A stretch of 64,000 nucleotides of DNA from an uncultured Methylomirabilota bacterium (GCA_963705305.1 OY970067.1:5184001-5248000); one strand, 5' to 3'. Positions 9,276-64,000 are shown, counted from the stretch's first letter. Translations and numbers: made by a program. The notes: generated by a model not told the origin, from the letters alone.

Positions 9276-9470
9276 TCATTTTTTTTCCAAATGCTTATCG
9301 ATGTAATACAACCCCGCAATACACAGGAAGGCGACGTAAATCACCGCAGCCATCCAGAAGGCCAGGAAGGGCAGCCCGAGGACTATCGGCTGCACCCGGT
9401 TGACAAAGGGGACCATGCCGATCGCCCACACAAAGGGAATCAGGGTCAGCACAACCTTGAGGGCTTTCAC
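9276..9470 (-). CDS. DUF3311 small membrane protein (SSS partner)
   Basis: NRVQPIVLGLPFLAFW signature; adjacent to the SSS gene. Confidence 0.8.
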   Translation of the reverse strand: MKALKVVLTLIPFVWAIGMVPFVNRVQPIVLGLPFLAFWMAAVIYVAFLCIAGLYYIDKHLEKK

Positions 9471-9586
9471 GGCTTCACGCTCCTTTCAGAGGATCCAGAC
9501 ACCCCGGCTTGAGACAGTGTCCCTTCGCCTCATCCATCCATCGGCGTGACCGACGATGGCCGTCCACGCCGGTTCCCGCGTCGGCG

Positions 9587-11047
9587 CTACTCTCGGGCCG
9601 TCGCCCTCTCCGGGGAGTACGTCATCAGACTGATGAGCACGAACAAGATAAAGTTGACGGCGAGCGCGAAGAACCCCGCGTTCAAGTGCATGCCAAGGAC
9701 GGGGGTCGGATCCAGCTTGTTCAGCATGAGGTAGAAGACCAGCCCCTCGCCCACAACCAGCCCGATGTAGGCGGCCGGGCGGGTGGCCTTCTTCCAGAAC
9801 AGACCGAGGACGATCAAGGGGAAGAACTGGGTCACCCCCGAGTAGCCGGTGAGCAGCAGGTTGACCAGCATGTTGGGGGCGAAGATCGCGAGCGCGAGGG
9901 CCACGGCGGTCAGCACGAGCACGACGACTTGGGCGAGCTTCCGAAGACTGTCGGGTGCGGCCTGCCGCCCGAGCGTCTTCCCGTAGATGTTCCGGGTGAA
10001 CAGCATCGACGTGGACAGGAGGAGATCGGCGGCGGGGATCATGCAGGCCAGGGCCCCCGCGCCGCCCACCAGCCCCAGGGCCCACCCGGGAAACGTCTTC
10101 CGCACGATTTCCATGAAGGCCATATCCGGGGTCTTGAGCGCAGGCACCAGCACCAGCAGCGCCGTGAACCCGATCAGCATCGGAAAGAGCATGCAGATCT
10201 GGTACAGCGGCAGGAACACGGCATTGTGCCGCAGGACTTCCGGACTCTTGGCGCTGAAGCTGTTGGCCTGGAGGTGGGGCCACATGTAGAACCCCAGGCT
10301 GGTCAACGCCACGGTGGACATCAGCCAGCTCACATCCAGGGTCTTGGTGCCGCCGGGCAAGGCCAGGTATCCGGGCTTGGCGGCATCCAGGGCTCTGAAC
10401 ATGCCGCCCAGGCTGCCGAAGTAATGGATCGGCAGGTAGAGGCCGAAGAAGACGACGGCCACGATCATGACGACGTCCTTGACAATGGCGGTCGTCGCGA
10501 CCCCGCGCAGTCCGCTCAAGTAGACGAACGCGGCCACCATGGCGAACGCGATCAGCATCGCCGGCACCCGCGTGATGGCGCCGGAGGAGCAGGTCTCGAT
10601 GATGAGGCCCAACCCGGTCAACTGGAGCTGCAGGTAGGGAAGCAGGAAGGCCACTCCCACCACGGCCACCAGGATGCCCAACACCTCGCTCTTATAGAGG
10701 TGGGCTACCAGGTCCGGCTGGGTCATCAACTCGTGCTTCCGCCCGATGGGGGACATGGCCGGCAGGACGTAGTAACCGACGACGTACGCCAGGGCTCCAT
10801 AGGCGAGGATGTAGAACGTCGGGCCGCCCCGGGCATACGCCCACCCGCTTCCGCCGAGAAAGGCGAAGGCCGTGTAGATCTCGCCGGCCAGGACGAACCA
10901 GCTCAGTCCTCGGCCGAAGCTCCGTCCCGCGATCGCCCAGCCTTCGAGATTCATGTGCTTGTGCAGCAGACCGGGGATCAGCCCGACGACGGTCGCGCCA
11001 ATCACGAAAAGAAAGATCAGCAGGAGAGGCATCGCTTGAGAACTCAT
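9587..11047 (-). CDS. Sodium:solute symporter family protein
   Basis: AGRS, GEIYTAFAFLGGSGWAY, PYLQLQL, GLRG motifs; GAAAGGA RBS. Confidence 0.9.
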   Translation of the reverse strand: MSSQAMPLLLIFLFVIGATVVGLIPGLLHKHMNLEGWAIAGRSFGRGLSWFVLAGEIYTAFAFLGGSGWAYARGGPTFYILAYGALAYVVGYYVLPAMSPIGRKHELMTQPDLVAHLYKSEVLGILVAVVGVAFLLPYLQLQLTGLGLIIETCSSGAITRVPAMLIAFAMVAAFVYLSGLRGVATTAIVKDVVMIVAVVFFGLYLPIHYFGSLGGMFRALDAAKPGYLALPGGTKTLDVSWLMSTVALTSLGFYMWPHLQANSFSAKSPEVLRHNAVFLPLYQICMLFPMLIGFTALLVLVPALKTPDMAFMEIVRKTFPGWALGLVGGAGALACMIPAADLLLSTSMLFTRNIYGKTLGRQAAPDSLRKLAQVVVLVLTAVALALAIFAPNMLVNLLLTGYSGVTQFFPLIVLGLFWKKATRPAAYIGLVVGEGLVFYLMLNKLDPTPVLGMHLNAGFFALAVNFILFVLISLMTYSPERATARE

Positions 11048-42956: not shown

Positions 42957-43850
42957 CTACTCCGGGATCAGATGATACTCGATGATCTTCTTGGCGCTGA
43001 AGTCGGGCAGCTGGAGATAGTAGCTCACGACCTCCTCCACCGCCTCGATGGGCACCATGCCGATCAGCTCGCATTCCTTGACGAGCACCCCGTAGCGCGC
43101 CGCCTCGGCCCGGATCAGCTCCACCGCCCGGTGGATGGGGGTCTTCTGGTAGTTGACCAAGTTCATGGACACCTGCACGATCCCCTGGCCCTCCAGGCGA
43201 AGCCCCATGGCCTTCACAAACCGCAGCCCGCCGCCGATGTGGCGGACGGCATTGGCGATCTTTTTCGCCACCTCCAGGTCGCCGGTATGCAGGTTGACAT
43301 TGAAGGCGATGAGCGGCATCCGGGCGCCCACCGCCGTGACGCCCGACTTCGGATTGAGCGTCTGCGGGCCCGCATCCACCGACCAGTCGGGATCCTGGAG
43401 CTTCCTGGGCATCCCCTCGTACTCCCCCTTCCGGATGTCGGCTAGGTTGCGGCGGGACTCCCGGGTGCAGGCCTGCTCGTAGAAGAATACCGGGACCCGG
43501 TGCCGCTCGGCATAGGCCGTGCCGAAGCGGCGCGCGATCTCAACCGCCTCGGCCATGGTCATCCCGCGGATGGGGATGAAGGGGATGACATCCACGGCAC
43601 CCATGCGCGGGTGGCTGCCCGTATGGGTCCGCATATCGATCAACTCGACGGCCCGCGATACCACCGCCATGGCCGCGGTCTCCACCGCCTCGGGCGTCCC
43701 CAGGAAAGTGGAGTCCGCCCGATTGTGGTCCTTGTCCATGGACAGGTCCAGGATCTTGACGGGAAACTGCTGCAGGACCTTCTCCAGCTCTTTCAGAAAG
43801 CTCGGGTCCCGCCCCTCACTGAAGTTCGGCACACACTGCAGGATCCTCAT
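42957..43850 (-). CDS. ftcD: Glutamate formimidoyltransferase
   Basis: CVPNFSEGR, DHNR, HPRMGAVDVIPF, IRKGEYEG, QVSMNL. Confidence 0.93.
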   Translation of the reverse strand: MRILQCVPNFSEGRDPSFLKELEKVLQQFPVKILDLSMDKDHNRADSTFLGTPEAVETAAMAVVSRAVELIDMRTHTGSHPRMGAVDVIPFIPIRGMTMAEAVEIARRFGTAYAERHRVPVFFYEQACTRESRRNLADIRKGEYEGMPRKLQDPDWSVDAGPQTLNPKSGVTAVGARMPLIAFNVNLHTGDLEVAKKIANAVRHIGGGLRFVKAMGLRLEGQGIVQVSMNLVNYQKTPIHRAVELIRAEAARYGVLVKECELIGMVPIEAVEEVVSYYLQLPDFSAKKIIEYHLIPE

Positions 43851-49915: not shown

Positions 49916-50185
49916 CTATCGCCTGCGTCCCCTACGCCTCCCCTGGCCGCTAATGTGGTCTGCGATCAGGAGCCCCGCCGGCACGCCGATGATCAGCGCC
50001 AGATACGCCGGCATCCCATTCTCGACGACATAGGGAATCACGGACACTCGCTTGCCGAGGGCCAAAACGACGAGGAGGGGCAGGCCGAACATGACGAAGA
50101 GCGTCGTCAGCGCAGGCACGATGCGCGACAGGAAGGCACGGGCGCTCTCCCCGCGCCTGCGCCGATAGAATTCCAGGCTGAACAC
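49916..50185 (-). CDS. Small hypothetical membrane protein
   Basis: Two hydrophobic segments, basic C-terminus, G-rich RBS before GTG. Confidence 0.45.
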   Translation of the reverse strand: MFSLEFYRRRRGESARAFLSRIVPALTTLFVMFGLPLLVVLALGKRVSVIPYVVENGMPAYLALIIGVPAGLLIADHISGQGRRRGRRR

Positions 50186-50392
50186 GGCACCCCCCTTGCC
50201 GTATCCGGACACACGCGACTGTCTCGGAGGCGCAGACACGCGGCTCGAAGGCCGCCGGGCGCGCCGGGCTTCCGCCCGGATAGCGCCCCGGAGCCGGCTG
50301 GATCGAAGCCTAGTGCCTCTCCCTGCCTCCTGTCAAGATTCCTCCCTGAATTGCCGTTGACGGGGCGTTTGCCTCAGGACTATCCTTCCCCA

Positions 50393-50534
50393 AATCTCCG
50401 GCTAACGTGTCCATCGCCTCTGCGGGGCACCGCCCATCGGGTGCAGCCAGGTCCGATGCGGGCAGCCAGCCCCGCGGCCATGATTGCGGGCGCCACACGG
50501 GTGCGTTACTGCCCTGCGACGTTATCCGGAGATT
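50393..50534 (+). ncRNA. Candidate structured RNA in the hutH leader
   Basis: Terminal 15/16 stem, nested internal stems, begins about 7 nt after TTGACG-18-TATCCT. Confidence 0.4.
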
Positions 50535-50569
50535 AAGGCCTTCCTGAGCCCCTTGCCAAGGAGTGCAGA

Positions 50570-52099
50570 ATGTCGCCGATACAGCTGGATGGAGAACGCC
50601 TGACGCTGGAGGAGGTCGAGCAGGTCGCCCGGCACGGGACGGCTGTACGGCTGGATCCGGCCGCCCGGCCGAAGATCCTGGCGGCCCGCGCCCTGATCGA
50701 TTCCGCCCTCCAGCGGGAACAGGCCGTCTACGGGGTGAGCACCGGCTTCGGCCCGCTCAGCGATGTGTTCGTCGGCGCGTCCGATCGCGAGGCCCTCCAG
50801 CGGAATCTCATCCGCAGCCACGCCGTGGGGATCGGCGAGCCCATCGGCGAAGCCGAGACGCGGGCCACCGTGCTGCTGCGCGCCAACGTCCTCGCCAAGG
50901 GGTATTCCGGCGTCCGGCCGGAGATCATCGAGCTCCTCTGCGAGCTGCTGAACCGCACCGTCCACCCCATCATCCCCGAGCGGGGATCCGTCGGGGCCAG
51001 CGGCGACCTCGCTCCCCTGGCCCACCTGGCCCTGGTCCTCATCGGCGAGGGAGAGGCAAGGTACCACGGGGAACGGCTTTCGGGAGGCGAGGCCCTCGGG
51101 CGCGCTGGCCTGGCCCCCGTGACGCTGCAGGCCAAAGAGGGTCTGGCCCTGATCAACGGGACCTGCGGCCTGACGGCGATCGGGGCGCTGGCTCTGATGC
51201 GCGCCGAGCGTCTGCTCACGCTGGCGGACGTGGCGGGCGCCATGACGCTGGAGGCGCTCCGGGGCTCGTTCGTGCCCTTCGATCCGCGCCTCCAGGCCGT
51301 GCGCCCCCACCCGGGCCAGGCGCGCACGGCGGAGAACCTCCGGCGCATCCTTCCGGACTCCGAGATCAACGTCTCGCACAGAGATTGCGGGAAGATCCAG
51401 GACAGCTATACGCTCCGCTGCATCCCTCAGGTGCACGGGGGCGTCCGCGACGTTCTGGCCTTCGCCCGGAGCACGCTGGCCCGGGAGCTGAACGCGGCCA
51501 CCGACAATCCGCTGGTCTTTGCCGATACCGAGGCGATCCTTCCTGGCGGGAACTTCCACGGCCATCCCGTGGCCCTGGCCCTGGACGCGGCCGGGTTGGC
51601 GTTGGCCGGGCTCTGCGGCTTCCTGGAGCGGCGGATCGAGCGGCTGGTCAACCCACAGTTGAGCGAGCTGCCGCCTTTCCTGGTGCAAGCCAGCGGCCTC
51701 AACTCCGGCTTCATGGTGGCCCAGATTTCGGCCGCCGCCCTCGCCTCCGAGGCCAAGCTGCTGGCCTCGCCTGCCTCCGTGAACTCCATCCCGACTTCCG
51801 GCAGCAAGGAGGATTTCGTCAGCATGGGCTGGCTGGCCTCCGTCAAGCTGGCGCAGATCGCGGACCTCCTGTCCGCCGTCCTGGCCCTGGAATTTCTCTG
51901 CGCCGCTCAGGGCCTGGATTTCCTGCTGCCCCTGCGCCCAGGGCGGGGGGCCTGGGCGGCTCACCAGACGATCCGACAGCAGGTCTCCCACCTGGAAGAA
52001 GACCGGTCCCTGCGGGCCGACGTGGACCGGATCCTGACGCTGATCGAGGGCGGGACACTGCTGGCCGCCGTGGAGGGTGTGGTCGGCGCGCTCGGCTGA
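50570..52099 (+). CDS. hutH: Histidine ammonia-lyase
   Basis: YGVSTGFG, NLIRSH, GSVGASGDL (MIO), QDSYTLRC, DNP, GGNFHG. Confidence 0.95.
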   Translation: MSPIQLDGERLTLEEVEQVARHGTAVRLDPAARPKILAARALIDSALQREQAVYGVSTGFGPLSDVFVGASDREALQRNLIRSHAVGIGEPIGEAETRATVLLRANVLAKGYSGVRPEIIELLCELLNRTVHPIIPERGSVGASGDLAPLAHLALVLIGEGEARYHGERLSGGEALGRAGLAPVTLQAKEGLALINGTCGLTAIGALALMRAERLLTLADVAGAMTLEALRGSFVPFDPRLQAVRPHPGQARTAENLRRILPDSEINVSHRDCGKIQDSYTLRCIPQVHGGVRDVLAFARSTLARELNAATDNPLVFADTEAILPGGNFHGHPVALALDAAGLALAGLCGFLERRIERLVNPQLSELPPFLVQASGLNSGFMVAQISAAALASEAKLLASPASVNSIPTSGSKEDFVSMGWLASVKLAQIADLLSAVLALEFLCAAQGLDFLLPLRPGRGAWAAHQTIRQQVSHLEEDRSLRADVDRILTLIEGGTLLAAVEGVVGALG

Positions 52100-52231
52100 C
52101 CCCCACCAGCGGATTCCTGGGCGAGACGAAAGGCGGATCGGCGGCCGAATTGGCCGCCGATACCGAGGTCAAGCGGGCGTACCGGGGGTGGATGAGATGC
52201 CCGCACCCGGTCGCCTCGGGCATCGGAATCC

Positions 52232-53110
52232 ATGCTGAAAGAGACGCGGGCCGTCATCACCGTTCTCGTCGGCGCCAGTCTGCTGGGGTCCCTGGGGGCC
52301 TGGGGGCGGGCCATCTACCGGTACGAGGGGGACCCGATGACTGTCGTCACCTGGCGCGCGCTCATCGGGTCGGCGGCGCTGGCCGGGGTCCTGGTGACCG
52401 CGCGCCCCGCCCTCCTCCGCATACGCCCGCGCGATCTCCCCTTCTTCGCCCTCTACGGCTTCTGCGGCGTCACGCTGAACTTCTGGGCGTATTTCTCGGC
52501 CATAAAGTTCACGACCCTGGCAGTGGCCATCACGCTCTTGTATACGTATCCGGCTTTCGTGGCCGTCCTCGCGGCCCTGTTCCTGGGGGAGCGCCTCACG
52601 GCCGGGAAGTGGTTCGCCATCGCCGTCACCCTTGCGGGATCGGCCCTGGTGGCCCAGGTGTACGCCGCCGATTTTGTCCGGTTGAACCTGAAGGGGATCC
52701 TCTTCGGCCTGGCGACCGGGATCAGCATGGCTGCGTACAGCATCTTCGGCAAGTGCGCCACGTCGCGGTACCCGCCGTGGACCGTTGTCCTGTACGCCTT
52801 CGCCGCCGGCAGCCTGTTCCTCGCCCTGGGGACCGGCCCCCGTCTGTTCGCCGCAGCCGGGTATCCTGTCGCCGCCTGGCTCTGGATCGTCGGATTGGCC
52901 CTGATTCCCAGTCTGGGCGGCTACGCCCTCTACACCACCGGGCTGCGCGACCTGCCGGCCAGCCGGGCCAGCGTCATCGCCACCTGGGAGGTGGTGACCG
53001 CCGCCGGCCTTGGCTGGCTTCTCTTCGGCGAACGCCCGACGCCGCCCCAGGTGATGGGTGCGGCGCTGGTCTGCCTCGGGATCTGGTGGATCCAACGCCC
53101 CGAGGCCTGA
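52232..53110 (+). CDS. DMT/EamA family transporter
   Basis: Two EamA repeats, LLYTYP, FLGE, LFGE. Confidence 0.88.
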   Translation: MLKETRAVITVLVGASLLGSLGAWGRAIYRYEGDPMTVVTWRALIGSAALAGVLVTARPALLRIRPRDLPFFALYGFCGVTLNFWAYFSAIKFTTLAVAITLLYTYPAFVAVLAALFLGERLTAGKWFAIAVTLAGSALVAQVYAADFVRLNLKGILFGLATGISMAAYSIFGKCATSRYPPWTVVLYAFAAGSLFLALGTGPRLFAAAGYPVAAWLWIVGLALIPSLGGYALYTTGLRDLPASRASVIATWEVVTAAGLGWLLFGERPTPPQVMGAALVCLGIWWIQRPEA

Positions 53111-53329
53111 GTCACTTCCCAACGCGCCCGGCCGTCGTCCAGGCTCCCCTGCCATCGCGGCACTTCCCGGCGCGGCCGACGGCCTCCGAGCCGGCGCCGG
53201 ATCCATCCCCCGGAATGGCTGGCATCCGCCGATCTCGGATTATTCGTTTCCGTGATGGCGCGAAGTGGGATATATTGGGGCCTCCTGGAGGCGCACGGCC
53301 TCTCGATGGGGAGGCGTAGGGAGGAAGGA

Positions 53330-54793
53330 ATGCGCACAATGCTGCTCAACCCGCCCTCGTTCGAAAAGTTCGACGGGGGGGCGGGCGCCCGATATCAGGC
53401 CACGCGGGAAATCACCTCGTTCTGGTACCCTGTCTGGCTGGCCTATGCGGCCGGCCTCATCCCGGAGAGCCGCCTGGTGGACGGACCGGCGCAGGGCATG
53501 ACCCCGGCCCAGACCATCCGGATGGCGCAGGAGTACGAATTCCTGGTCGTGTTCACCAGCACCGCCGGCTTTCGCAACGATGTCCGGCTGGCCGAGGCGA
53601 TCAAGGACGCAAACCCCGCCGTGCGGGTGGCCTTCGTGGGGCCGCACGTCACGGTCAAGGCGGCGGAAAGCCTCGAGGCATCGCGCGCCATAGACTTCGT
53701 CGTCCGGCGGGAGTTCGACTTCGCCGTGGCGGAGTACGCGGCGGAGCGTCCGCTGGAAGCGATCCCGGGGGTGAGCTATCGGAAGAACAGCCATATCGTC
53801 CACACCGAGGACCGGCCGCCCCTCGACGATCTGGACTCCCTTCCCTTCGCGGTGGACATCTACAAGCGCGACCTGGACATCCGGCGCTACAACATCCCCT
53901 ACCTGCTGCACCCGTACGTCTCCTTCTACACGTCGCGCGGCTGCCCGGCCCTCTGCACGTTCTGCCTGTGGCCCCAGACCATCAGCGGACATCCCTGGCG
54001 GACGCGGAGCGTCTCCAACGTGGTCGAAGAGGTCCGCCGCTGCCGGGCCCACTTCCCCGAGGCCAGGGAGATCTTCTTCGACGACGATACCTTCCCCTGG
54101 GCCAAGCAGCGCACACTGGAGGTCTGCAAGGCGCTGAAGCCGCTGGGGGTGACCTGGTCCTGCAACTCGCGGGTGCACACCGACCGCGAGACCTTGCAGG
54201 CGATGAAGGACGCGGGGTGCCGGCTCATGGTGGTGGGCTTCGAATCCGGCGATCCGCAGATCCTGAAGAACATCAAGAAGGGGGCCACCGTCGAACAGGC
54301 GCTCGCCTTCATGAAGCACTGCAAGCAGGTCGGCCTGGCCGTCCACGGAGACTTCCAGATCGGCCTGCCCGGCGAGACCCCCGCCACCATCGAGAAGACG
54401 ATGGAGTTCGCCAAGCGGCTGGACCCCGACACGATCCAGGTGTCCATTTCCCACCCGTATCCGGGGACCGAATTCGACGCGTATGTCCGCCAGCATGGAT
54501 ACCTGACCGACGACGACATGGCGGACGAGTGCGGGCACCAGCTGCCGAACATCAACTACCCCGGCCTGGACCGGCGCTACATGGTCCAGAAGGTCGAGGA
54601 ATTTTACAGCCGCTACTACTTCCGCCCCCGGGTGGTCTGGCGGTTCCTCACGCGGGCCGCGCAGGACACCGCCGAGATGCGCCGGCTCTTTCAGGAAGCC
54701 AAGGAGTTCTTCCGCGTGCGGGCCAAGCGGCGGGCTTTCGCGGCAGGAACGGATGCCCGAAAAGACGACCGGACGGTCGCCTCGCAGGGGTAA
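53330..54793 (+). CDS. hpnJ: Hopanoid biosynthesis radical SAM protein HpnJ
   Basis: PPSF..FDGGAG.RYQA.REI.SFWYP.WLA, RGCPALCTFCLWPQT, FFDDDTF, FY..YYFRP. Confidence 0.88.
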   Translation: MRTMLLNPPSFEKFDGGAGARYQATREITSFWYPVWLAYAAGLIPESRLVDGPAQGMTPAQTIRMAQEYEFLVVFTSTAGFRNDVRLAEAIKDANPAVRVAFVGPHVTVKAAESLEASRAIDFVVRREFDFAVAEYAAERPLEAIPGVSYRKNSHIVHTEDRPPLDDLDSLPFAVDIYKRDLDIRRYNIPYLLHPYVSFYTSRGCPALCTFCLWPQTISGHPWRTRSVSNVVEEVRRCRAHFPEAREIFFDDDTFPWAKQRTLEVCKALKPLGVTWSCNSRVHTDRETLQAMKDAGCRLMVVGFESGDPQILKNIKKGATVEQALAFMKHCKQVGLAVHGDFQIGLPGETPATIEKTMEFAKRLDPDTIQVSISHPYPGTEFDAYVRQHGYLTDDDMADECGHQLPNINYPGLDRRYMVQKVEEFYSRYYFRPRVVWRFLTRAAQDTAEMRRLFQEAKEFFRVRAKRRAFAAGTDARKDDRTVASQG

Positions 54794-54826
54794 CGCGCCG
54801 CCGCTGGACGTCCCGGGGGATCCAGG

Positions 54827-55987
54827 GTGATTCGAGAGCTGCTGTCTGCCGCCTTCTTCCTCCCCGCCCTGATCGGCAGCGGGTTCGGGTGTGCCTGCCT
54901 GGTGGCGGTCCTCTGGCTGTTCCGTGATCGGCAGTCGCCTGCCGGCCCTCCCGCCCCGACGCCGCCGGTGACGGTCCTGCGCCCGATCCGCGGCCTCGAT
55001 CGGCAGCTCCTCGAGAACCTGCGCAGTGTCTGCCGCCAGGACTACCCGGTATTCCAGATCGTGTTCTCCGTCCAGGATGGGGATGATCCGGCCCTCCCGC
55101 TGCTCTGGCAGGTCCAGCGAGAATTCGGGGAGGAGCGGGTGGCGGTGGTGGTCCACAGTCTCACGGCCGGCCCCAACGGCAAGGCCAATAACCTGCTGGG
55201 CGGCCTGACCGCCGCGCGCCACGATCTCCTCGTCATCAGCGACAGCGACGTGCACCTGCGTCCCGACTACCTGCGGGCCATCGTGCGCCCCTTCGCCGAT
55301 CCCCGGGTCGGGTGCGTCAACACGCTCTTTAGAATCGGACAGGCGCGCCGCTGGTACGAGCGGATGAGCCTGTTGCACCTCAACGCCGACTTCCTCCCCG
55401 CCGCCGTCTTCGCCTACCTGATCGGCGCCGCGGGCTTTACGCTGGGACCCTCGGTGGCCATCCGGCGCACCACGTTGCAGGCAATCGGGGGATTCGAGGC
55501 GCTTGCCACGTACCTCGCCGAGGATTACGAGATCGGGCGCCGGACGCTGGATCTGGGTCAGCGGGTCGTCCTGCTCCCGTACATGGTCGAGGTGGCGGCG
55601 AATCATCCCAGCGCTTCCGCCTGGTTGAGGCATCAGGTGTACTGGGATCAGAACTCGCGCGCGGCCAGGCCGATGGGGTATTTTGGCAGCATCCTGATCC
55701 GGTCGGTGCCGTTCGCGCTGCTGTGTGCCCTGGCGCGAGGCCTGGATTCCATCGGGATGGGCGTCCTGGCCGGAGCGTTGGGGGTCCGTGCGGCAACGGT
55801 GGCCGGGATCCTGTGGCGATTTCAGGATCGGGAGGGACTGCGGAGCCTTCTCCTCCTGCCCCTCCAGGATATCCTCGGCGTGGCCACCTGGGCCCTGGCG
55901 TTCACGCAGCGCACGGTCGTCTGGCGAGGCCAGAAGTACCGGCTCACCACGGGCGGGCGGATGGAGCTGTCCCGCGGGAAGGCGTGA
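54827..55987 (+). CDS. hpnI: HpnI-like glycosyltransferase (ceramide glucosyltransferase-type GT2)
   Basis: PVTVLRP..G, QDYP, NGKANNL, ISDSD, IGGF...LAEDY, QVYW, VVWRG; directly after hpnJ. Confidence 0.82.
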   Translation: MIRELLSAAFFLPALIGSGFGCACLVAVLWLFRDRQSPAGPPAPTPPVTVLRPIRGLDRQLLENLRSVCRQDYPVFQIVFSVQDGDDPALPLLWQVQREFGEERVAVVVHSLTAGPNGKANNLLGGLTAARHDLLVISDSDVHLRPDYLRAIVRPFADPRVGCVNTLFRIGQARRWYERMSLLHLNADFLPAAVFAYLIGAAGFTLGPSVAIRRTTLQAIGGFEALATYLAEDYEIGRRTLDLGQRVVLLPYMVEVAANHPSASAWLRHQVYWDQNSRAARPMGYFGSILIRSVPFALLCALARGLDSIGMGVLAGALGVRAATVAGILWRFQDREGLRSLLLLPLQDILGVATWALAFTQRTVVWRGQKYRLTTGGRMELSRGKA

Positions 55988-56027
55988 CATGCCACGCCGG
56001 AACGCGCACTATGTGGAGGAACGCCCT

Positions 56028-56417
56028 ATGCTTCGTGTTGCCCTCGCCATGATCGTGGGGTCCGCCGCCACGGCCATGGGACAGATCCTGATCCGCCGGG
56101 GAATGCAGCAGATCGGCTCCCTGGAAGTCCACACACCGGCGGCCCTGGTCGCCTACTTCTCCCAGGTGGTGGTGAACCCCAACGTGATCGGCGGGACGCT
56201 CCTCAACGGAGTCTTCTACTTCCTCCTGCTGGCCGTCCTGTCCTGGGCGGAGGTGACGGTGGCAGTCCCGTTTACCGCGCTCGAGTACGGTTTCGCGGCC
56301 ATCCTGGCCATCACCATCCTGCAGGAGTCGGTTCCGTTCATCCGCTGGGTGGGGATCGTGCTGGTGATCGTCGGGGTGCTGCTGATCAGCTTGAGCGGGT
56401 CGGGGGGAGCGGCGTAG
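56028..56417 (+). CDS. Small EamA/SMR-like membrane protein
   Basis: Four TM helices, GQ....GM, LSWA.V.VA.P, L.E.V...RW.G. Confidence 0.78.
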   Translation: MLRVALAMIVGSAATAMGQILIRRGMQQIGSLEVHTPAALVAYFSQVVVNPNVIGGTLLNGVFYFLLLAVLSWAEVTVAVPFTALEYGFAAILAITILQESVPFIRWVGIVLVIVGVLLISLSGSGGAA

Positions 56418-56603
56418 CACGCTGCTGAAAAAGGCCCATCTGCCGCGTTGGCGTGCTCGCGCGGCGCTGCGGTGTACGAGCGAAGTACGCCTCGCACCTG
56501 CACCCATCCTTCGGATGGGTACCCGGCGCGCCGCCTTGCCGTTCGGCGGGCTCACGGTCCCGAGCGAAGTCGAGGGACATCTGGACCTTTTTGAGCAGCC
56601 TGC
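56417..56603. repeat. Palindromic MITE/REP-like element
   Basis: GCTGCTGAAAAAGGCCCA...TGGACCTTTTTGAGCAGC imperfect terminal inverted repeat; internal ACCCATCC/GGATGGGT hairpin. Confidence 0.75.
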
Positions 56604-56676
56604 GTAAAAACCGGTATTTACTACCCAGCGAGCCGTTGAAGGACGATCGGCGGCTACCACGGGAAAGGGATCGGGC

Positions 56677-57813
56677 ATGCGGACGATCAAGCCGTTTCAT
56701 CTCGACCTGACCGAGGCAGAGATCGAGCGATACATGCAGGAGTCGGGGAGGATCCTTCGCTCCGGCACGCTTATCCTGGGGGAGTACACCGCCCGCTTCG
56801 AGCAGGCATTCGCCCGGTACGTCGGTGCACAACACGCCATCAGCGTCAACAGCGGATCGGCGGCGCTGGAGTTCCTCCTGCGGCTGAAAGACGTCGAGGG
56901 CAAGGGCGTGCTGGTGCCGACGAACACCAACTTCGCCACCGTGGCGGCAATCCTGCGGGCAGGCGGGCAGGTGAGGTACCTGGACATGGACCGGGCCACG
57001 TTCGCGCCGACGCTGGCCATGGTCCAAGAGGCGGTCGAAGGCCGCGCGGCCCGCGAGGGCGGCCCCATTGCCGGCGTTCTGTGGGTGCACATCGGGGGGG
57101 TCATCTCGCCGGAGTTTCCCGACGTCGTTCGCTACTGCCGCTCGCGGGGCCTCTTCGCCCTGGAAGACGCCGCCCACGCCCACGGCAGCCAGCTCGGCGG
57201 CGTCCGGTCGGGCGTCCTGGCGGACGGAGCCGCTTTTTCCTTCTTCCCCACGAAGGTGATGACCACCTGCGAGGGCGGGATGATCACTACCAACGACGAC
57301 CGGGAGGATTACCTGGCCCGCTCCTTCCGGAATCAGGGGAAGCGCGGGATGGACTACGGGGGACTGCACACGGATTTCGGCAACAGCAGCCGCATGACCG
57401 AGCTGCATGCCCTGCTCGGGCTGATCCAGCTCGAACGGCTGCCGGCCATCCTGGAGCGACGGGCGGCGGCGGCCCGGGCCATCACGCGGGAGCTAGACCG
57501 GGCCGGCATCGGGTACTGCCCCACCGCGCACATGGACGCGGCCAGCCACTACAAGCTGATCGTGCACGTGCCCGACGGCACGACGGCGGACGCCGTGCGA
57601 AAGGGGATCGCGAATGACGGGGTGATCGCGGGGGGCGGGGTCTACGAGATCCCCTGCCACCTGCAGCCGGTCTTCGCCGGGATCGGGACGGGCGGCGCGC
57701 TGCCGGGCGCGGAGTGCTGGTGCCCGCGGCATGTCTGCCCGCCGCTCACGTCCAGCATGACGGAAGAAGACGCCGTCTTCGTCGGCCACACGGTGGTCAA
57801 GCACATGCGCTGA
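56677..57813 (+). CDS. DegT/DnrJ/EryC1/StrS family PLP aminotransferase
   Basis: VNSGSAAL, EDAAHAHG, FSFFPTKVMTTCEGG, NQG, RM.E..A. Confidence 0.92.
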   Translation: MRTIKPFHLDLTEAEIERYMQESGRILRSGTLILGEYTARFEQAFARYVGAQHAISVNSGSAALEFLLRLKDVEGKGVLVPTNTNFATVAAILRAGGQVRYLDMDRATFAPTLAMVQEAVEGRAAREGGPIAGVLWVHIGGVISPEFPDVVRYCRSRGLFALEDAAHAHGSQLGGVRSGVLADGAAFSFFPTKVMTTCEGGMITTNDDREDYLARSFRNQGKRGMDYGGLHTDFGNSSRMTELHALLGLIQLERLPAILERRAAAARAITRELDRAGIGYCPTAHMDAASHYKLIVHVPDGTTADAVRKGIANDGVIAGGGVYEIPCHLQPVFAGIGTGGALPGAECWCPRHVCPPLTSSMTEEDAVFVGHTVVKHMR

Positions 57814-57831
57814 GCGGGCCGGGGGGAGAGG

Positions 57832-59139
57832 GTGACGAGCATGCGGGTGGATTTTGCGGTTGTCGGGGGCGGCATCGCGGGGCTGGCCATCGCGGAGCTG
57901 CTGCAGCGCAGTGGTGCATCGGTCCTCCTGGTGGAGAAGAACGCGCGATTGTGCGGCGAGGCCTCGGCAGAGCAGCAGGGCTGGTTCCACACGGGGGCCC
58001 TCTACGCCGCCCTGCCGAACCAGTTCTTCCTGCGGGCCCTCGTGGGCAACCTGGACGATCTGATGGACTATTACGGCGATTTCCCCGCGATGAACCTGCG
58101 GGTGGAAAAGCACCTGTCCACGACGATCCGGGAGGGCTGGTTCTCCAACCGGACCAACTTCTACGCCTACACCGGCCTGCGCGGCGTGAGCTGGTCCTGG
58201 AAGCTGCCCTGGCTCGTGGCCCTCAACCGGGCCAGGCAGCGGATGTCGTGGTACGAGGGCCTGGACGCCTCTCGCAGCGTCAGCCGGCAACTGGGCATCC
58301 GGACGAAGCCGACGAAATACGTGATGCATGCGTCCCGGCTGGGGGCGAACCTGGAGCACGTCGCCTTCGTCCTCAAATCCCGGGACCGGGGGCTGAACGC
58401 CCCCTGGATCATCTCGGATCTCGCCCGGAGCTTCCTGGCCAACGGAGGTCAGGTGCGGCTCCAGACCTCGGTTGTCGGCGTCGAGCCGGGCGCGCTGGCG
58501 GTGGAGGAGGGAGAGCAGCGGACGAGGGCGCGGATCACCGCCCGCCACATCGTCCTGGCGGCGGGGAAGGAGAGCCGGGCCTTCGACCCCATGATCCGGG
58601 TCTTCGCCAGTCCGATCCTGGTGGTCAGACCCGCTCTCACGGATGTCAACTTCGTATACATGACCCCGCACATGCCGCGCACGTTGAACCATCTGTTTCA
58701 CCGCACGGACGGGATCGAGTATTCCGTTCTGGGCAACGCCACCTACTTCGATGCCACCACAGGGGCGGACCCGTACCGGGATCAGGCCTGGACGCACATG
58801 ACCGGTGTGGCGCGGCGCCTCTTTCCCGGTTTCGATGAATGCCAGGCCGCTCTCTACTTCGGCTACAAGACCGAGGTCACGTCATCCTCGAGCATCCGGA
58901 ACTACCTGTATCACATCCTCGACCGCGACGGGTACACGCTCGCCTTGCCCGGCAAGTTCAGCCTGTGCTTCAGTCTGGCCGTGAATGTCTGCCGGCATTT
59001 CGGAATCGAGCCGGTGGAGCGGGTGCGCCTGGCCCCCTCCGAGAGCGTTCTCGGCCTGATCGAAGAGCCCCGGCATCTGCGCATCGCCAGGGGGATCGCC
59101 GAGAACTCGACGGCGCCCCTGCCCCGCCAGCTTGGGTAG
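57832..59139 (+). CDS. FAD-dependent oxidoreductase (DAO-like, unusual)
   Basis: VVGGGIAG, LVEK, AS..QGW.H.G, VLAAG, PGKFS. Confidence 0.8.
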   Translation: MTSMRVDFAVVGGGIAGLAIAELLQRSGASVLLVEKNARLCGEASAEQQGWFHTGALYAALPNQFFLRALVGNLDDLMDYYGDFPAMNLRVEKHLSTTIREGWFSNRTNFYAYTGLRGVSWSWKLPWLVALNRARQRMSWYEGLDASRSVSRQLGIRTKPTKYVMHASRLGANLEHVAFVLKSRDRGLNAPWIISDLARSFLANGGQVRLQTSVVGVEPGALAVEEGEQRTRARITARHIVLAAGKESRAFDPMIRVFASPILVVRPALTDVNFVYMTPHMPRTLNHLFHRTDGIEYSVLGNATYFDATTGADPYRDQAWTHMTGVARRLFPGFDECQAALYFGYKTEVTSSSSIRNYLYHILDRDGYTLALPGKFSLCFSLAVNVCRHFGIEPVERVRLAPSESVLGLIEEPRHLRIARGIAENSTAPLPRQLG

Positions 59140-59171
59140 TGCCTGGCGGCTACTTCGGCGTCGTCAGATCG

Positions 59172-59204
59172 AATGACCCATTGACCAATCTGCAATGACC
59201 AATG
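59172..59204. repeat. Degenerate AATGACC heptamer array
   Basis: AATGACC C ATTGACC AATCTGC AATGACC AATG. Confidence 0.45.
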
Positions 59205-59257
59205 CGGCCCGGACCGGGGACCGGGCCAGCCCCGCCCTCCACCCTTGCCTCTCGAAA

Positions 59258-59286
59258 TTGCAGGCCGCCGGGGTCCGGGGTATAAT
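59258..59286 (+). promoter_or_regulatory. Sigma70-like promoter of hutU
   Basis: TTGCAG-17 nt-TATAAT. Confidence 0.6.
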
Positions 59287-59358
59287 CCCCACATTCACCC
59301 CGCGGGCTTCCGGCAGACTCCCAGAGTGTCGAACGGTCCGCGACAGGAGGGATGCGCC

Positions 59359-61029
59359 ATGCCTCCGACCCAGGCACCGAAGGAGCCCATCCGCGCCCCC
59401 CGAGGGGCCACCTTGACCTGCAAGGGCTGGCACCAGGAGGGGGCCCTGCGCATGCTGATGAACAATTTGGATCCCGAAGTGGCCGAGCGCCCGCAGGATC
59501 TGGTGGTCTACGGCGGGGCGGGCAAGGCGGCCCGGAACTGGGAGTGCTACCACCGCATCGTCGAGAGCCTGAAGGCCCTGGAGAACGACGAGACCCTGCT
59601 GGTCCAGTCCGGGAAGCCGGTGGGGATCTTCCGGACGCACACCTTCGCCCCTCGCGTCCTGATCAGCAACGCCATGCTGGTGCCCGCCTGGGGCACCTGG
59701 GAGAAGTTCCGCGAGCTGGAGGCGCTGGGCCTGACCATGTACGGCCAGATGACGGCCGGCAGCTGGATCTACATCGGCACCCAGGGAATCCTGCAGGGCA
59801 CCTACGAGACCTTTGCGGCGGCGGCCCGAAAGCATTTCGACGGCAGTCTCAAGGGCACGCTGACCCTCACCGCCGGCCTGGGCGGGATGGGGGGCGCCCA
59901 GCCGCTGGCCGCGACCATGAACGACGGCGTCATCCTGGCCATCGAGGTGGATCCCGAGCGGATCGAGAAGCGGGTCAAGACGGGCTACTGCGAGGTCATG
60001 ACGACGAGCCTGGAGGAGGCCCTCGACCTGGCCCTCGGGGCCAAGCGGGCCGGCACTCCCAAGTCCATCGGCCTGGTCGGCAACGCCGCCGAGCTGCACC
60101 CGGAGATCCTGAAGCGCGGCGTGCTGCCCGACCTGGTCACCGACCAGACCTCGGCCCACGACCCCCTGAACGGATACGTGCCGGCCGGCCTGACCGTGGA
60201 GCGGGCCCGCGAGCTGCGCGCCACCAAGCCCGACGAGCACATCGCCCGCGCCCTCGACTCCATGGCCGTCCACGTGCAGGCCATGCTGGAATTCCAGCGG
60301 CGCGGCGCGGTCGTCTTCGACTACGGCAACAACATCCGCCAGCAGGCCCTGGGCCGGGGCGTGAAGAACGCCTTCGACTTCCCCGGCTTCGTCCCGGCCT
60401 TCATCCGGCCCCTGTTCTGCACCGGCCACGGCCCCTTCCGCTGGGCCGCCCTGTCCGGCGACCCGGCCGATATCGCGAAGATCGACGGCGCCATCCTGCG
60501 GGAGTTCAAAGACAACGCCCACCTGGTCCGCTGGATCACTATGGCCCGGGAGAAGATCCATTTCCAGGGACTCCCGGCCCGGATTTGCTGGCTGGGGTAC
60601 GGCGAGCGGGACCGCCTGGGCCTCCTGGTCAACCGGATGGTGCGCTCGGGCGAGTTGGCCGCCCCTGTCGTCTTCGGCCGCGACCATTTGGATTCGGGCT
60701 CGGTGGCCTCGCCCAATCGCGAGACCGAGGCCATGCGGGACGGGAGCGACGCGATCGCCGACTGGCCGATCCTGAACGCCCTGCTCAACACCGCCGCCGG
60801 CGCCTCCTGGATCTCGGTCCACCACGGCGGGGGAGTCGGCATCGGCTATTCCGTTCACGCCGGCATGGTGGTCGTGGCCGACGGGACCCCCGAGACCGAG
60901 CTGCGCCTCCGGCGGGTGCTGACCACCGATCCGGGCACCGGCATCATGCGGCACGCCGATGCGGGCTACCCCGAGGCCATCGCCGCGGCCAAGGAGAAGG
61001 CCGTCAAGATCCCTGGGCTGACAGCTTAA
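59359..61029 (+). CDS. hutU: Urocanate hydratase
   Basis: [49 protein letters not shown]. Confidence 0.97.
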
Positions 61030-61102
61030 GCTGCGTGTTTCAGCATCCGCCCTGCGTCCGAGGGTCTTCCCGTTGGAGCCGTCCTCCGGCTGGAGGTCCA
61101 CC

Positions 61103-64000
61103 ATGATCTCTCTGGGGCAGTTCTTCATGGCTCGCCGGCGCGAGATCCTCATCTGGGGCGTAAGCCTCCTGGCCGCCTTCACGCTGCTGGGTTTCTTCGC
61201 CGTCCCCCCGATTCTGAAGTCTGTCCTGACGAAACAACTGACCGCCGCTCTCCACCGCGATGTGACCATCCGGGAGGTCCGCTTCAATCCGTTTGCGCTC
61301 TCCACCACGCTGCGCGGCCTGACGATCAAAGAGCCCCAGGGACCGGAGACCTTTGTCTCTCTCGAAGAGCTGTACCTGAATCTCGAGGCCTCCTCGGTAT
61401 TCCGATGGGCCATCGTCATCAAAGAGCTCCGCCTGAGCAAGCCCTTCCTTCGCATCGTCCGCCGCCAGGATCAGACCTACAGCTTCTCGGATCTCCTCCA
61501 GAGCCGAGAGGCGCCGCAGCCCCCACCGCCAAAGCCGCTGCGCTTCTCCGTCAACAACATCCGCATTGTGGACGGGGGAGTGGATTTCCTGGACGAGACC
61601 GTGGGGAAGACGCATACGGTCCGGGAGCTGAATATCGGCATCCCCTTTCTCTCGAATATTCCGTCCAGGATCAATACCTTCGTCCAGCCGGGCCTCTCGG
61701 CGGTGGTGAATGGGACGCGCTACACCCTCCGAGGAGAGACCAAGCCGTTCGCCGAATCGCTGGAGACGTCGCTAAATCTCAACATTGCCGACCTCGATCT
61801 TCCGTACTACCTCGCCTACCTTCCACAAGACCTGCTGCATTTCACGCTCCCCTCGGGCCGACTGGATGCGAAGCTCACCATCGGCTTTGTGCGCCGACAG
61901 AAGGCCGCGCAAACCCTGACCGTCAAGGGCGATATCGGCCTCCGCAGCGTCGCGGTGGACGACCGGAAGGGTGATCCTGTGGTTCGCCTGCCGGCCTTCA
62001 ACGTCGGGATCGCCTCTGCCGAGCTCTTCACCCGAACGGTGCATCTCTCCAGGGTGTCCCTCCAGTCGCCCGAACTGACGGTGCGCCGGGGAAAGACGGG
62101 CACCATCAATCTGGAGACCCTGCTCCCCACGCCGGGTCCTCCGAAAGCAGCCGCCGGGCAGGCAGCCAAGCCCGAGGGAGCGGGTCTTGTCCTGGACGTC
62201 GACGAGATCAGTGTGGCCGGGGCAAAGGTCCTGTTCTCCGACCGCCTGCCGCCCCTCCCCTTCAAGACCACCCTGGATCCCATCGATCTCAAGATCACGC
62301 AGCTGAGCAACCGCCCGAATACCAGCGGATCCTATAGCCTCGCAGCAAAGACGGAGGCCAAAGAAGGGCTGGCGCTGGCCGGAACTTTTTCCCTCACGCC
62401 GCTTCTGGTAGAGGGCACGGTCCAGGCCACGCAGGTCCCACTCACGAAGTACGCCCCTTACTACAGCGAGAGCGTTCTCTTTGACGTCGAGAGCGGGAGG
62501 CTCGATCTCTCCAGCCGGTATCGGTACGCCCAGGGAGAAAGGAAGCCCGAGATCACGGCGTCAGGGGGGGCGGTATCCGTATCTGCGCTCCGGCTCAGGC
62601 GGCGCGATGAGACCGAGGACATCCTCCGGATTCCCAGCCTCGTCATCAAGGAGATCGCGGTTGACCTGTCCAGGCGGCGCCTGACGGTGGGAGGGCTCTC
62701 CACCCAGAAGGGGATAGTTCGCGCGATTCGTCTCCCCAGCGGGGAGGTGAACCTGCAGAAGCTCACGGCCCCGGCACCGCCACCTCCGCCTGGTGCCGCC
62801 ACGGCCGCCGCCGCGGAGCCACAGCCCTGGATCGTCCACGTGAATCGGCTGGCCGTGGACCAGTACACGGCGACGCTCGAGGACCGCAGCCTCTCCGAGC
62901 CCATCACCCTGACGGCAGAAGCAATTCGCCTCACCGCCGAGAATCTCTCGACGGAGAAGAACGCCACGGGGACGCTGAGTCTGGCCCTGCTCCTCGACCA
63001 GACTGCCAAGATCTCGACCGCATCCACAGTGGGCCTGGATCCGATCCGCGCAGAAGGTCGGGTACAGGTATCCGGTCTCGTCCTTCACCGGTACGCGCCC
63101 TTCTACAAAGACCGAATCCTCTTCGATCTGCAGGACGGAACGCTCGACCTGGCATCGACCTATCGCATCCTCCGGGCGAAAGACTCCTTGGATGTCAAGC
63201 TGACCGGCCTCTCGACCTCGATCACGGCGCTGCGCCTCAAAACACGGGACACGAATCAGGAGTTTCTAAGCATCCCGAACCTGGCCATCCGGAATACCGG
63301 TGTGGACCTGTCCCAACAGGACGTCACGGTCGGCGATCTCTCCACCGAGGGGGGAACCGTCCTCGTCTCCCGCTCCCCACAGGGTGAGCTGAACCTCGCG
63401 TACCTCCTCCCACGCGCCACGAGCGCAGCCCGGTCTGCTGCGGCCAGTCCAGCGGCAGCCCCGGCCCCGGGCTTGCCGTCGAATCCAACCCGCCCCTGGA
63501 CGGTCAAGGCAGGTGCCATCTCCGTGAATCGGTACCGGATCCAGGTCACCGATGCGGTCCCGCGCGAGCCGGTGAAGCTGGACCTTGAGGACCTGAATCT
63601 GAAGGCAGAGAATCTCTCGACGGCGGAGAACGCCCCGGCGGGAAAGGTCTCACTCGGCCTTCGCCTGGGCAAAGGGACCGTCTCCGTCGAAGGCGCGGTG
63701 CGGGTCGCTCCCGTCCTGGCCGACCTGCAGCTCGCCGTCAAGGAGATCCACATTCGCCCGTTCCAGCCGTACATCGCCGACAAGGTGAAAGTCACCATCG
63801 CGGACGGTCGCATATCAACCAGCGGCCGTCTCCATCTGAGCATCAAGGAGCCCGCCGGACTGGAGGCGAAATATACGGGGGACACCACCCTGGGCAAGTT
63901 CAGCGCCATCGAGAAAGACAGCGCCGAGGACATCCTGAGATGGGAATCCCTGGCCCTGCACGACCTTTCCGTGGGCTACAACCCTCTCTTCGTCCGCGCC
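61103..64000 (+). CDS. DUF748-domain protein, 3' truncated by the window edge
   Basis: GGAGG RBS, N-terminal TM, V.FNPF.L, FSDLL, repeated NL..L modules; same frame at both ends with no stop reported. Confidence 0.85.
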   Translation, partial: MISLGQFFMARRREILIWGVSLLAAFTLLGFFAVPPILKSVLTKQLTAALHRDVTIREVRFNPFALSTTLRGLTIKEPQGPETFVSLEELYLNLEASSVFRWAIVIKELRLSKPFLRIVRRQDQTYSFSDLLQSREAPQPPPPKPLRFSVNNIRIVDGGVDFLDETVGKTHTVRELNIGIPFLSNIPSRINTFVQPGLSAVVNGTRYTLRGETKPFAESLETSLNLNIADLDLPYYLAYLPQDLLHFTLPSGRLDAKLTIGFVRRQKAAQTLTVKGDIGLRSVAVDDRKGDPVVRLPAFNVGIASAELFTRTVHLSRVSLQSPELTVRRGKTGTINLETLLPTPGPPKAAAGQAAKPEGAGLVLDVDEISVAGAKVLFSDRLPPLPFKTTLDPIDLKITQLSNRPNTSGSYSLAAKTEAKEGLALAGTFSLTPLLVEGTVQATQVPLTKYAPYYSESVLFDVESGRLDLSSRYRYAQGERKPEITASGGAVSVSALRLRRRDETEDILRIPSLVIKEIAVDLSRRRLTVGGLSTQKGIVRAIRLPSGEVNLQKLTAPAPPPPPGAATAAAAEPQPWIVHVNRLAVDQYTATLEDRSLSEPITLTAEAIRLTAENLSTEKNATGTLSLALLLDQTAKISTASTVGLDPIRAEGRVQVSGLVLHRYAPFYKDRILFDLQDGTLDLASTYRILRAKDSLDVKLTGLSTSITALRLKTRDTNQEFLSIPNLAIRNTGVDLSQQDVTVGDLSTEGGTVLVSRSPQGELNLAYLLPRATSAARSAAASPAAAPAPGLPSNPTRPWTVKAGAISVNRYRIQVTDAVPREPVKLDLEDLNLKAENLSTAENAPAGKVSLGLRLGKGTVSVEGAVRVAPVLADLQLAVKEIHIRPFQPYIADKVKVTIADGRISTSGRLHLSIKEPAGLEAKYTGDTTLGKFSAIEKDSAEDILRWESLALHDLSVGYNPLFVRA

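Follow-up and report, generated by a model that had tools for sequence, protein, structure and literature searches.

An apparently undescribed variant of the bacteriohopanetetrol glucosamine/cyclitol-ether gene cluster in an uncultured Methylomirabilota bacterium

The locus

The subject of this analysis is a group of five plus-strand genes that lies within 53.3-59.1 kb of a 64,000-nt stretch of DNA (hereafter the window) from an uncultured Methylomirabilota bacterium (GCA_963705305.1 OY970067.1:5184001-5248000). The genes encode, in order, HpnJ, HpnI, a 129-aa EamA protein, a DegT-family aminotransferase and a flavin adenine dinucleotide (FAD)-dependent oxidoreductase that is here termed FADox, and the cluster is apparently a distinct and undescribed variant of the pathway to bacteriohopanetetrol (BHT) glucosamine and the cyclitol ether of BHT (BHT-CE). 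In the canonical scheme HpnI transfers N-acetylglucosamine (GlcNAc), HpnK deacetylates the sugar and HpnJ contracts the ring. The scheme is that of Schmerk et al. 2015 as given in the available portions of PMC12583986 and PMC13459092, according to which hpnI, hpnK and hpnJ are in Alphaproteobacteria usually all present or all absent. A first-pass annotation of the window had claimed five co-oriented genes, the last two of them 18 nt apart, and Pfam and NCBIfam matches bear this out: all five are present where they were claimed, on the plus strand, and the intergenic gaps from hpnJ through to FADox measure 33, 40, 259 and 18 nt.

53330..54793, plus strand: hpnJ, B12-binding radical SAM enzyme (TIGR03471, PF04055, PF02310)
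54827..55987, plus strand: hpnI-like GT2/GT21 glycosyltransferase of the DegT/FADox-linked clade (TIGR03472, PF13506)
56028..56417, plus strand: small EamA/DMT half-size membrane protein of 129 aa, candidate flippase or exporter subunit (PF00892)
56418..56676, no strand: spacer with imperfect palindrome (arms 56421-56442 and 56579-56600)
56677..57813, plus strand: DegT/DnrJ/EryC1-family pyridoxal phosphate (PLP)-dependent sugar aminotransferase (PF01041)
57832..59139, plus strand: FADox, DAO-fold FAD-dependent oxidoreductase, proposed sugar dehydrogenase (PF01266)

The gene products

The first two genes belong to the hopanoid pathway. The longest open reading frame (ORF) for hpnJ spans 53252-54793 and starts at a GTG at 53252, but the likely true start is the ATG at 53330, which has a ribosome-binding site (GGGAGGAAGGA) upstream and is also the start that the first-pass annotation had given. 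HpnJ scores 709.2 bits against TIGR03471 (cutoff 577.6), covering profile positions 1-471 of 472 and so qualifying as an equivalog, and it has both a B12-binding domain (PF02310) and a radical SAM domain (PF04055), in which the CxxxCxxC motif reads CPALCTFC (residue 205 in the 487-aa form). The evidence that HpnJ turns BHT glucosamine into the cyclitol ether comes solely from a knockout in B. cenocepacia, according to the part of PMC13459092 that was available. HpnI passes its own model marginally (TIGR03472, 319.4 bits against a cutoff of 310), matches PF13506 with 125.6 bits and has about five hydrophobic segments. The small EamA protein matches PF00892 with 32.6 bits (cutoff 28.2) and falls well below the ArnE equivalog (about 22 bits against a cutoff of 92), and is thus not assigned to the ArnE/ArnF type.

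The DegT protein matches PF01041 with 290.4 bits over profile positions 5-359 of 360, and its PLP lysine, K193 in the sequence FSFFPTK, is invariant in 18/18 aligned sequences. Conservation of this protein is unusually high: identity is 61-71% across Nitrospirota, Alphaproteobacteria and Cyanobacteria, and mean column identity is 71% over 18 sequences from four phyla. It corresponds to none of the named equivalogs that were compared (PseC, ArnB, DesI, WecE and others), the best being PseC with 157.8 bits against a cutoff of 423.5. Its closest relatives in the PDB are scyllo-inositol transaminase and perosamine synthetases, and WbpE, NtdA and AHBA synthase are also among its PDB relatives.

FADox belongs to the DAO family by its domain (PF01266, 75.8 bits against a cutoff of 27.9), its GxGxxG-type motif (GGGIAG) and its two-domain GR2 fold, and it falls into none of the GlpD, ThiO, SoxB, DadA or L2HGDH subfamilies. 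NCBIfam matches cover only its first ~60 residues and lie far below the cutoffs, and a PDB sequence search matched only the Rossmann N-terminus (residues 1-70), so that the earlier description of this oxidoreductase as 'unusual' was a fair one. A protein atlas search returned only generic DAO clusters. An AlphaFold (AF2) model built on a 24-sequence alignment (mean pLDDT 81.5, pTM 0.85) was compared with the PDB using Foldseek. The top folds were alpha-glycerophosphate oxidase (GlpO) and E. coli glycerol-3-phosphate dehydrogenase (GlpD), with E-values of 1.8e-17 to 1e-15 and TM-scores of up to 0.63, followed by PA4991, NikD, glycine and sarcosine oxidases and L-2-hydroxyglutarate dehydrogenase. 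The modelled fold would suit an enzyme that oxidises secondary alcohols to ketones, and amine oxidation would be equally compatible with it. In a word-indexed search 171 proteins matched at E<=1e-5; few of these are named, and those that are come from Nitrospirota, Chloroflexi, Gammaproteobacteria and Geminicoccaceae metagenome-assembled genomes (MAGs) and bear generic names only. When a profile was run against 1.84 billion cluster representatives, 112 matched at E<=1e-30 and 252 at E<=1e-10. Judged by these searches, FADox is a small, well-delimited, unnamed DAO-fold family. Membrane segments were predicted in neither DegT nor FADox, and a prediction of the DegT-FADox complex, run without controls, scored 0.00, which counts neither for nor against binding.

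Conservation of the linkage in other genomes

The FADox alignment was scanned against one genome per species, which gave 52 loci (L001-L052), and up to 10 kb on each side of FADox was screened by tblastn, Pfam and NCBIfam. The loci fall into two types. Type A comprises 23 loci (L001-L023) from Nitrospirota, Alphaproteobacteria and some Gammaproteobacteria, in which FADox is 42-68% identical. Type B comprises 29 loci (L024-L052) with a 480-520-aa FADox homologue of about 25% identity, and its sources are Cyanobacteria, one planctomycete contig and one 64% G+C contig labelled Nitrosopumilus.

Type A, DegT next to FADox: 17/23 loci
Type A, hpnI: 11/23 loci
Type A, hpnJ: 9/23 loci
Type A, small EamA: 8/23 loci
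Type A, NodU-like carbamoyltransferase (polysaccharide cluster): 6/23 loci
Type A, BlsE-like second radical SAM enzyme: 4/23 loci
Type A, HpnL-like flippase-domain protein: 3/23 loci
Type A, HpnA: 2/23 loci
Type A, HpnN: 1/23 loci
Type A, hpnK: 0/23 loci
Type B, DegT: 7/29 loci
Type B, hpnI: 7/29 loci
Type B, hpnJ: 3/29 loci, plus one partial at a contig end
Type B, hpnK: 0/29 loci

The linkage of the DegT/FADox pair to hpnI and hpnJ, which had been named beforehand as a check on the proposal, is thus found in other genomes and phyla, and it is conserved far beyond chance. Seven Nitrospira loci (L001-L007) share the order hpnJ, 317-aa membrane protein, hpnI, EamA, DegT, FADox; in four alphaproteobacterial loci FADox is divergent from DegT-(EamA)-hpnI; and Trichodesmium erythraeum IMS101 (L051) has hpnI, DegT and a FADox-like gene in a row. 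The ~300-317-aa membrane protein between hpnJ and hpnI (L001:6157-7110, with equivalents in L002-L007) has no counterpart in the window and matched no Pfam or NCBIfam family. The small EamA gene lies between hpnI and DegT in L001-L007 and L015, and because the full five-gene order is thereby confined to eight orthologous loci (Nitrospira and one alphaproteobacterium), the putative flippase, which had been proposed as part of the cluster, is better regarded as accessory than as core.

DegT is missing from six type A loci. In two of them (L019, L023) FADox is cut at the contig edge, a further one (L022) is fragmentary, its FADox (2396-4520) matching in three scattered pieces, and the other three are gammaproteobacterial. 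The DegT of L017 (11290-12424) matches in two pieces in different frames, and these fragments of L017 and L022 may be pseudogenes or assembly errors. In the gammaproteobacterial loci (L011, L018, L020) FADox is paired divergently with a D-amino-acid-dehydrogenase-like flavoprotein. HpnA (TIGR03466, 497 bits) lies at 8907-9956 of the Geminicoccaceae locus L015, directly upstream of FADox and on the same strand, and in L011 FADox is near HpnN and HpnA; the proximity of HpnA in both hints at a functional tie with FADox.

A BlsE-like second radical SAM gene, 65-73% identical between loci, is found in six loci of Alphaproteobacteria and Cyanobacteria (L015:14145-15296, L016:1007-2200, L017:8593-9705, L021:8451-9575, L045:5750-6841 and L050:13945-15018) and is not part of the window cluster; its best model is the BlsE cytosylglucuronate decarboxylase, at a score far below the cutoff. 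Two contigs look like misbinned ones: L030, the contig labelled Nitrosopumilus, carries bacterial hpnI-DegT-FADox genes at 64% G+C, and L009, labelled Bacteroidota, carries a Nitrospira-like cassette with 63-64% identity.

Loci without hpnK

The absence of hpnK from the window, which the first-pass annotation had also claimed, holds up: with three HpnK proteins as queries, tblastn at E<=1e-4 found no match in any frame of the 64 kb, and the YdjC domain was not found among the window ORFs scanned. At the same threshold hpnK was absent from all 52 FADox loci, compared with its presence in 4/4 canonical hpnIJ loci (L053-L056), where it lies 0 to 6.5 kb from hpnJ and abuts it in the nearest case. 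As far as these loci go, hpnK is not linked to DegT/FADox clusters.

A separate HpnI clade and a conserved HpnJ

Of the two hopanoid enzymes, HpnI is the one that has diverged. A tree of 24 sequences, from which the partial HpnI of L050 (contig end) was left out, separates 18 DegT/FADox-linked from six HpnK-linked proteins with 100/100 support, and the branch between the two clades has a combined length of about 1.8 changes per site. The DegT/FADox-linked HpnIs do not group with HpnK-linked HpnI, and the split follows genomic context and not taxonomy; those of Alphaproteobacteria, for instance, do not group with Methylobacterium HpnI. Within the DegT/FADox clade, proteins from different phyla are 46-57% identical; their identity to canonical HpnI is 26-30%, and the window HpnI is 25-33% identical to the HpnK-linked proteins. 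Ten alignment positions are fixed differently between the two clades. Among the GT2 motifs DSD is kept, whereas the second motif is QVYW where canonical HpnI has ELRW or ETRW: the (Q/R)xxRW region reads HQVYWDQN instead of HE(L/T)RW(S/L)RT, so that two arginines are lost and one aspartate is gained. The motif change fits a different, possibly cationic, donor, and the separate clade would fit a changed route to the amino sugar.

Current annotation hides this split, because the NCBI HpnI model passes both clades. NCBI gives the name HpnI to relatives, and the database contains at least 120 clusters with 51% or more identity to the window HpnI, among them some from Nitrospiraceae, Thermodesulfobacteriota and Acidobacteriota MAGs that bear this name. 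Seven contigs, not counting that of the window, could be matched by size across the top-120 lists for FADox and HpnI (224262, 10630, 85547, 21400, 34973, 28480 and 11008), which suggests further co-located FADox/HpnI pairs in metagenome data, a match in size alone being no proof. Two of the canonical loci, on plasmids of Paraburkholderia graminis (L053) and Burkholderia sp. (L055), have two hpnI paralogues each, one by hpnJ and one by hpnK, and these form separate subclades in the HpnI tree.

HpnJ has behaved differently. The window protein has 70-72% identity with its Nitrospira counterparts and 46-49% with canonical HpnJ, and in a tree of 17 sequences (the partial HpnJ of L044, at a contig end, being left out) the proteins group by taxonomy. 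Between DegT-linked HpnJ of Alphaproteobacteria and canonical HpnJ the identity is 63-66%, the separating branch being 0.12. An HpnJ that follows taxonomy would fit the same downstream substrate being reached by a different upstream route.

The aminotransferase/oxidoreductase pair in polysaccharide clusters

The same DegT-FADox pair is also found in polysaccharide-type clusters of Nitrospira and related bacteria (L008, L009, L010, L012, L019, L023), in the order GT2 (about 300 aa), DegT, FADox, carbamoyltransferase and WcaI-like GT4, accompanied by transferases of the WecA or WbaP type, methyltransferases, a protein resembling Wzx and, in one cluster, a GDP-mannose dehydratase. The DegTs of these clusters are 66-69% identical to the window DegT, and in the DegT tree polysaccharide-linked and hopanoid-linked proteins are intermixed on short branches. 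The presence of the pair in such clusters points to the making of amino sugars in general, probably before their transfer, and not to the tailoring of hopanoids or cyclitols, and DegT-FADox is best described as a portable amino-sugar cassette that is not hopanoid-specific. Two candidate roles were set aside. FADox as a hopanoid desaturase, for which Trichodesmium as a producer of unsaturated BHT-CE might speak, does not agree with its coupling to DegT in polysaccharide clusters too, and amination of the cyclitol after ring contraction by HpnJ was dropped as the principal explanation because the pair occurs without HpnJ.

A proposed HpnK-independent route and its alternatives

We lean, with moderate confidence, towards the view that the cluster is an HpnK-independent branch of the BHT glucosamine/cyclitol-ether pathway. 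The observations on gene content, conserved linkage, hpnK-free loci, the HpnI clade, the FADox fold and the intact PLP lysine are joined here in a scheme in which the chemical steps, the aminated carbon, the order of steps and the role of the flippase are inferred. FADox would oxidise a sugar at a secondary hydroxyl, giving a ketone that DegT would transaminate to a free amine; the distinct HpnI would attach this free-amine sugar to BHT; HpnJ would contract the amino-hexose to the aminocyclitol ether; and the 129-aa EamA protein, where present, would move the cationic glycolipid across the inner membrane. An HpnK deacetylase would not be needed, because the amine would never be acetylated. The bypass of HpnK by oxidation and transamination had been put forward in the first-pass annotation; the linkage, the hpnK-free loci and the HpnI clade support it, and the pair's occurrence in polysaccharide clusters speaks against confining it to hopanoids. 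Since canonical HpnI delivers GlcNAc, DegT and FADox alone would probably be unable to rescue the loss of hpnK.

It is moderately favoured that oxidation and amination take place at the nucleotide-sugar stage, before HpnI, over their taking place on the BHT glycoside. Three things point this way: the cassette works with unrelated glycosyltransferases; DegT and FADox both look soluble; and it is HpnI, not HpnJ, that has diverged, with two arginines lost and an aspartate gained in a motif that lines the substrate. The conservation of HpnJ argues for an aminated sugar that is probably close to glucosamine.

Several points weigh against this HpnK-independent route. The pair is not hopanoid-specific, 6/23 type A loci being polysaccharide clusters without hopanoid genes. 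In the window the 259-nt palindromic spacer splits DegT-FADox from hpnJ-hpnI-EamA, and co-transcription is not assured. The modelled FADox fold is equally like those of the amine oxidases NikD, glycine oxidase and sarcosine oxidase. The gammaproteobacterial MAG loci mentioned above have FADox without DegT, the cyanobacterial FADox is only about 25% identical, and 22/29 type B loci are without DegT or hpnI nearby. All 52 loci were ascertained via FADox, so that they yield no estimate of the share of the HpnI clade or of hpnK-less genomes, and the canonical set is small (four plasmid loci from Burkholderiaceae and Methylobacterium, two proteobacterial classes). Finally, hpnK may lie elsewhere in the genome, the view taken here being of 64 kb and, in relatives, of up to 10 kb on each side of FADox.

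An alternative that we consider unlikely is that HpnI transfers GlcNAc or another sugar and that FADox and DegT add a further or differently placed amine, as in a 3-amino or 2,3-diamino sugar, the product then being an undescribed amino-glycosyl or aminocyclitol hopanoid. The great divergence of the HpnI clade would agree with such a new head group, as would the extra BlsE-like radical SAM gene kept in six loci, the position of HpnA directly upstream of FADox in L015 and the inclusion of 3-, 4- and 6-aminotransferases in the DegT family; yet HpnJ is hardly changed relative to the canonical enzyme, which is not expected for a very different substrate. Moreover, Trichodesmium, a carrier of the cluster, is reported in the available part of PMC5516240 with BHT cyclitol ether of ordinary mass, a mass-spectrometric result that would also be compatible with an isomer.

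Amination after glycosylation is, in our estimate, about as unlikely, though to be taken seriously: HpnI would put a neutral hexose on BHT, a membrane-associated FADox would oxidise it in the manner of DprE1, and DegT would then aminate it. The closest folds to FADox, GlpD and GlpO, include membrane-associated quinone-linked enzymes, the gene directly upstream of DegT encodes a GT2 in hopanoid and polysaccharide contexts alike, and the small EamA is present in eight loci. However, a DegT that is almost unchanged between the two contexts (61-71% identity, with intermixed branches in the tree) would then need to act on sugars carried by two different lipids, no membrane segment is predicted for DegT or FADox, and the GT2 of the polysaccharide clusters matches no polyprenyl-phosphate transferase above weak generic GT2 matches. 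That DegT and FADox are unrelated in function to hpnI and hpnJ here, and are an adjoining polysaccharide or lipopolysaccharide amino-sugar cassette beyond the spacer, would agree with the polysaccharide clusters that lack hopanoid genes and with the structured spacer in front of DegT, but is highly improbable given the adjacency of hpnI in 11/23 type A and 7/29 type B loci from three phyla, the position of FADox beside HpnA and near HpnN in other loci, and the absence of any other glycosyltransferase near the pair among the window ORFs scanned.

The spacer and the surroundings of the cluster

Within the spacer at 56418-56676 lies an imperfect palindrome of ~180 nt; its terminal arms are 22 nt long and its minimum free energy is -113.5 kcal/mol. 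It had been described as a repeat element; the palindrome is indeed there, but no further copy was found in the window, and Rfam families gave no match in 50000-62000, spacer included. The Nitrospira loci lack the palindrome at the equivalent position (in L001 EamA ends at 8778 and DegT starts at 8830). The palindrome could be an insertion of the MITE/REP type (miniature inverted-repeat transposable element or repetitive extragenic palindrome) or a regulatory hairpin. A promoter and terminator scan of 53000-59400 gave nothing informative.

52232..53110, plus strand: full-size EamA transporter with 10 transmembrane (TM) segments, cluster membership doubtful (PF00892, 144.5 bits)

This 10-TM transporter was considered as a member of the cluster but had no tblastn match in related loci. 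Together with it, the five-gene block is flanked by hutH (50570-52099) and hutU (59245-61029). These two genes are usually neighbours and are here kept apart by the 7-kb EamA-hpnJ-hpnI-EamA-DegT-FADox block, which has a G+C content of 0.674 (near flanks 0.705 and 0.694) and looks like an insertion into the hut locus. A formiminotransferase gene lies at 42957-43850. The remaining window ORFs scanned are transport and central-metabolism genes, and shc, hpnH and hpnG were not found among them.

Wider occurrence and significance

Hopanoid producers that depart from the three-gene pattern have been noted before. In the portions of these sources that were available, Acidobacteria of subdivisions 1 and 3 have hpnI and hpnJ without hpnK, from which the authors inferred that no cyclitol ether is made (PMC5462960); Leptospirillum is listed with hpnIJ and without hpnK (PMC7231039); and in marine cyanobacteria hpnK departs from the pattern of the other hopanoid genes (PMC6744863). 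The available part of PMC5516240 gives unsaturated BHT-CE in Trichodesmium, citing Talbot et al. 2008, and uses it as a biomarker for that genus, and in the Lawrence et al. preprint, as far as its text was available, HpnI, HpnJ and HpnK are annotated by TIGRFAM without benchmarking. A search of the literature, with most subscription journals outside its reach, found nothing that ties a DegT protein or a flavoprotein to hopanoid head groups.

A broader reading comes close to an even chance without quite reaching it: the FADox family and its dedicated DegT may be an unrecognised route to free-amine sugars which, with the distinct HpnI, makes BHT glucosamine or cyclitol ether without HpnK in several phyla (Nitrospirota, Cyanobacteria including Trichodesmium, some Alphaproteobacteria and probably Acidobacteria) and which also feeds cell-surface polysaccharides. 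If true, this would account for the many producers that have hpnI and hpnJ without hpnK, it would mean that the current HpnI model lumps two clades, perhaps with different donors, and it would give glycobiology a new flavin-dependent route to amino sugars. Genome surveys predict BHT-CE-type lipids from hpnI, hpnK and hpnJ, and hopanoids of this kind serve as biomarkers; were DegT-FADox to replace HpnK, the survey predictions would be wrong for several phyla.

Comparison with known systems

The cluster shares with the canonical HpnI/HpnK/HpnJ pathway an HpnI-family GT2/GT21 glycosyltransferase and the B12-radical SAM enzyme HpnJ, both above the NCBIfam equivalog cutoffs, and the lipid acceptor and the ring contraction are presumably the same. 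It differs in having no HpnK in the locus, an HpnI from a separate clade with a changed motif, and the addition of DegT, FADox and the small EamA protein. A second parallel is the Arn pathway for lipid A aminoarabinose (ArnA, ArnB, ArnC, ArnD and ArnE/F), in which, as proposed here, a sugar is oxidised and then aminated by a DegT-family enzyme (ArnB), a GT2 enzyme transfers it to a lipid (ArnC) and small EamA/SMR-like proteins flip the product (ArnE/F). However, the oxidant would here be a DAO-fold flavoprotein, unlike ArnA, a nicotinamide adenine dinucleotide (NAD)-dependent SDR; the lipid would be a hopanoid where Arn uses undecaprenyl phosphate; and formyl protection and a deformylase have no equivalent here.

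Pairs of a dehydrogenase and a DegT enzyme that replace a hydroxyl on a sugar by an amine are known (GnnA/GnnB, WbpB/WbpE, NtdC/NtdA and RifL/RifK), and the two-step passage from hydroxyl through ketone to amine, encoded by adjacent genes, would be common to them and to DegT-FADox, whereas their dehydrogenases are NAD-dependent Gfo/Idh/MocA proteins and the partner here uses FAD and has the DAO/GlpD fold. Flavin-dependent sugar oxidations are likewise known, from DprE1 acting on decaprenyl-phosphoribose and from NeoQ/BtrQ, which work with NeoB/BtrB in the 6'-amination of aminoglycosides. FADox would resemble both in the FAD-dependent oxidation of a sugar hydroxyl, and NeoQ/NeoB also in the transamination that follows, but DprE1 and NeoQ have VAO/PCMH and GMC folds, respectively, and act on other substrates.

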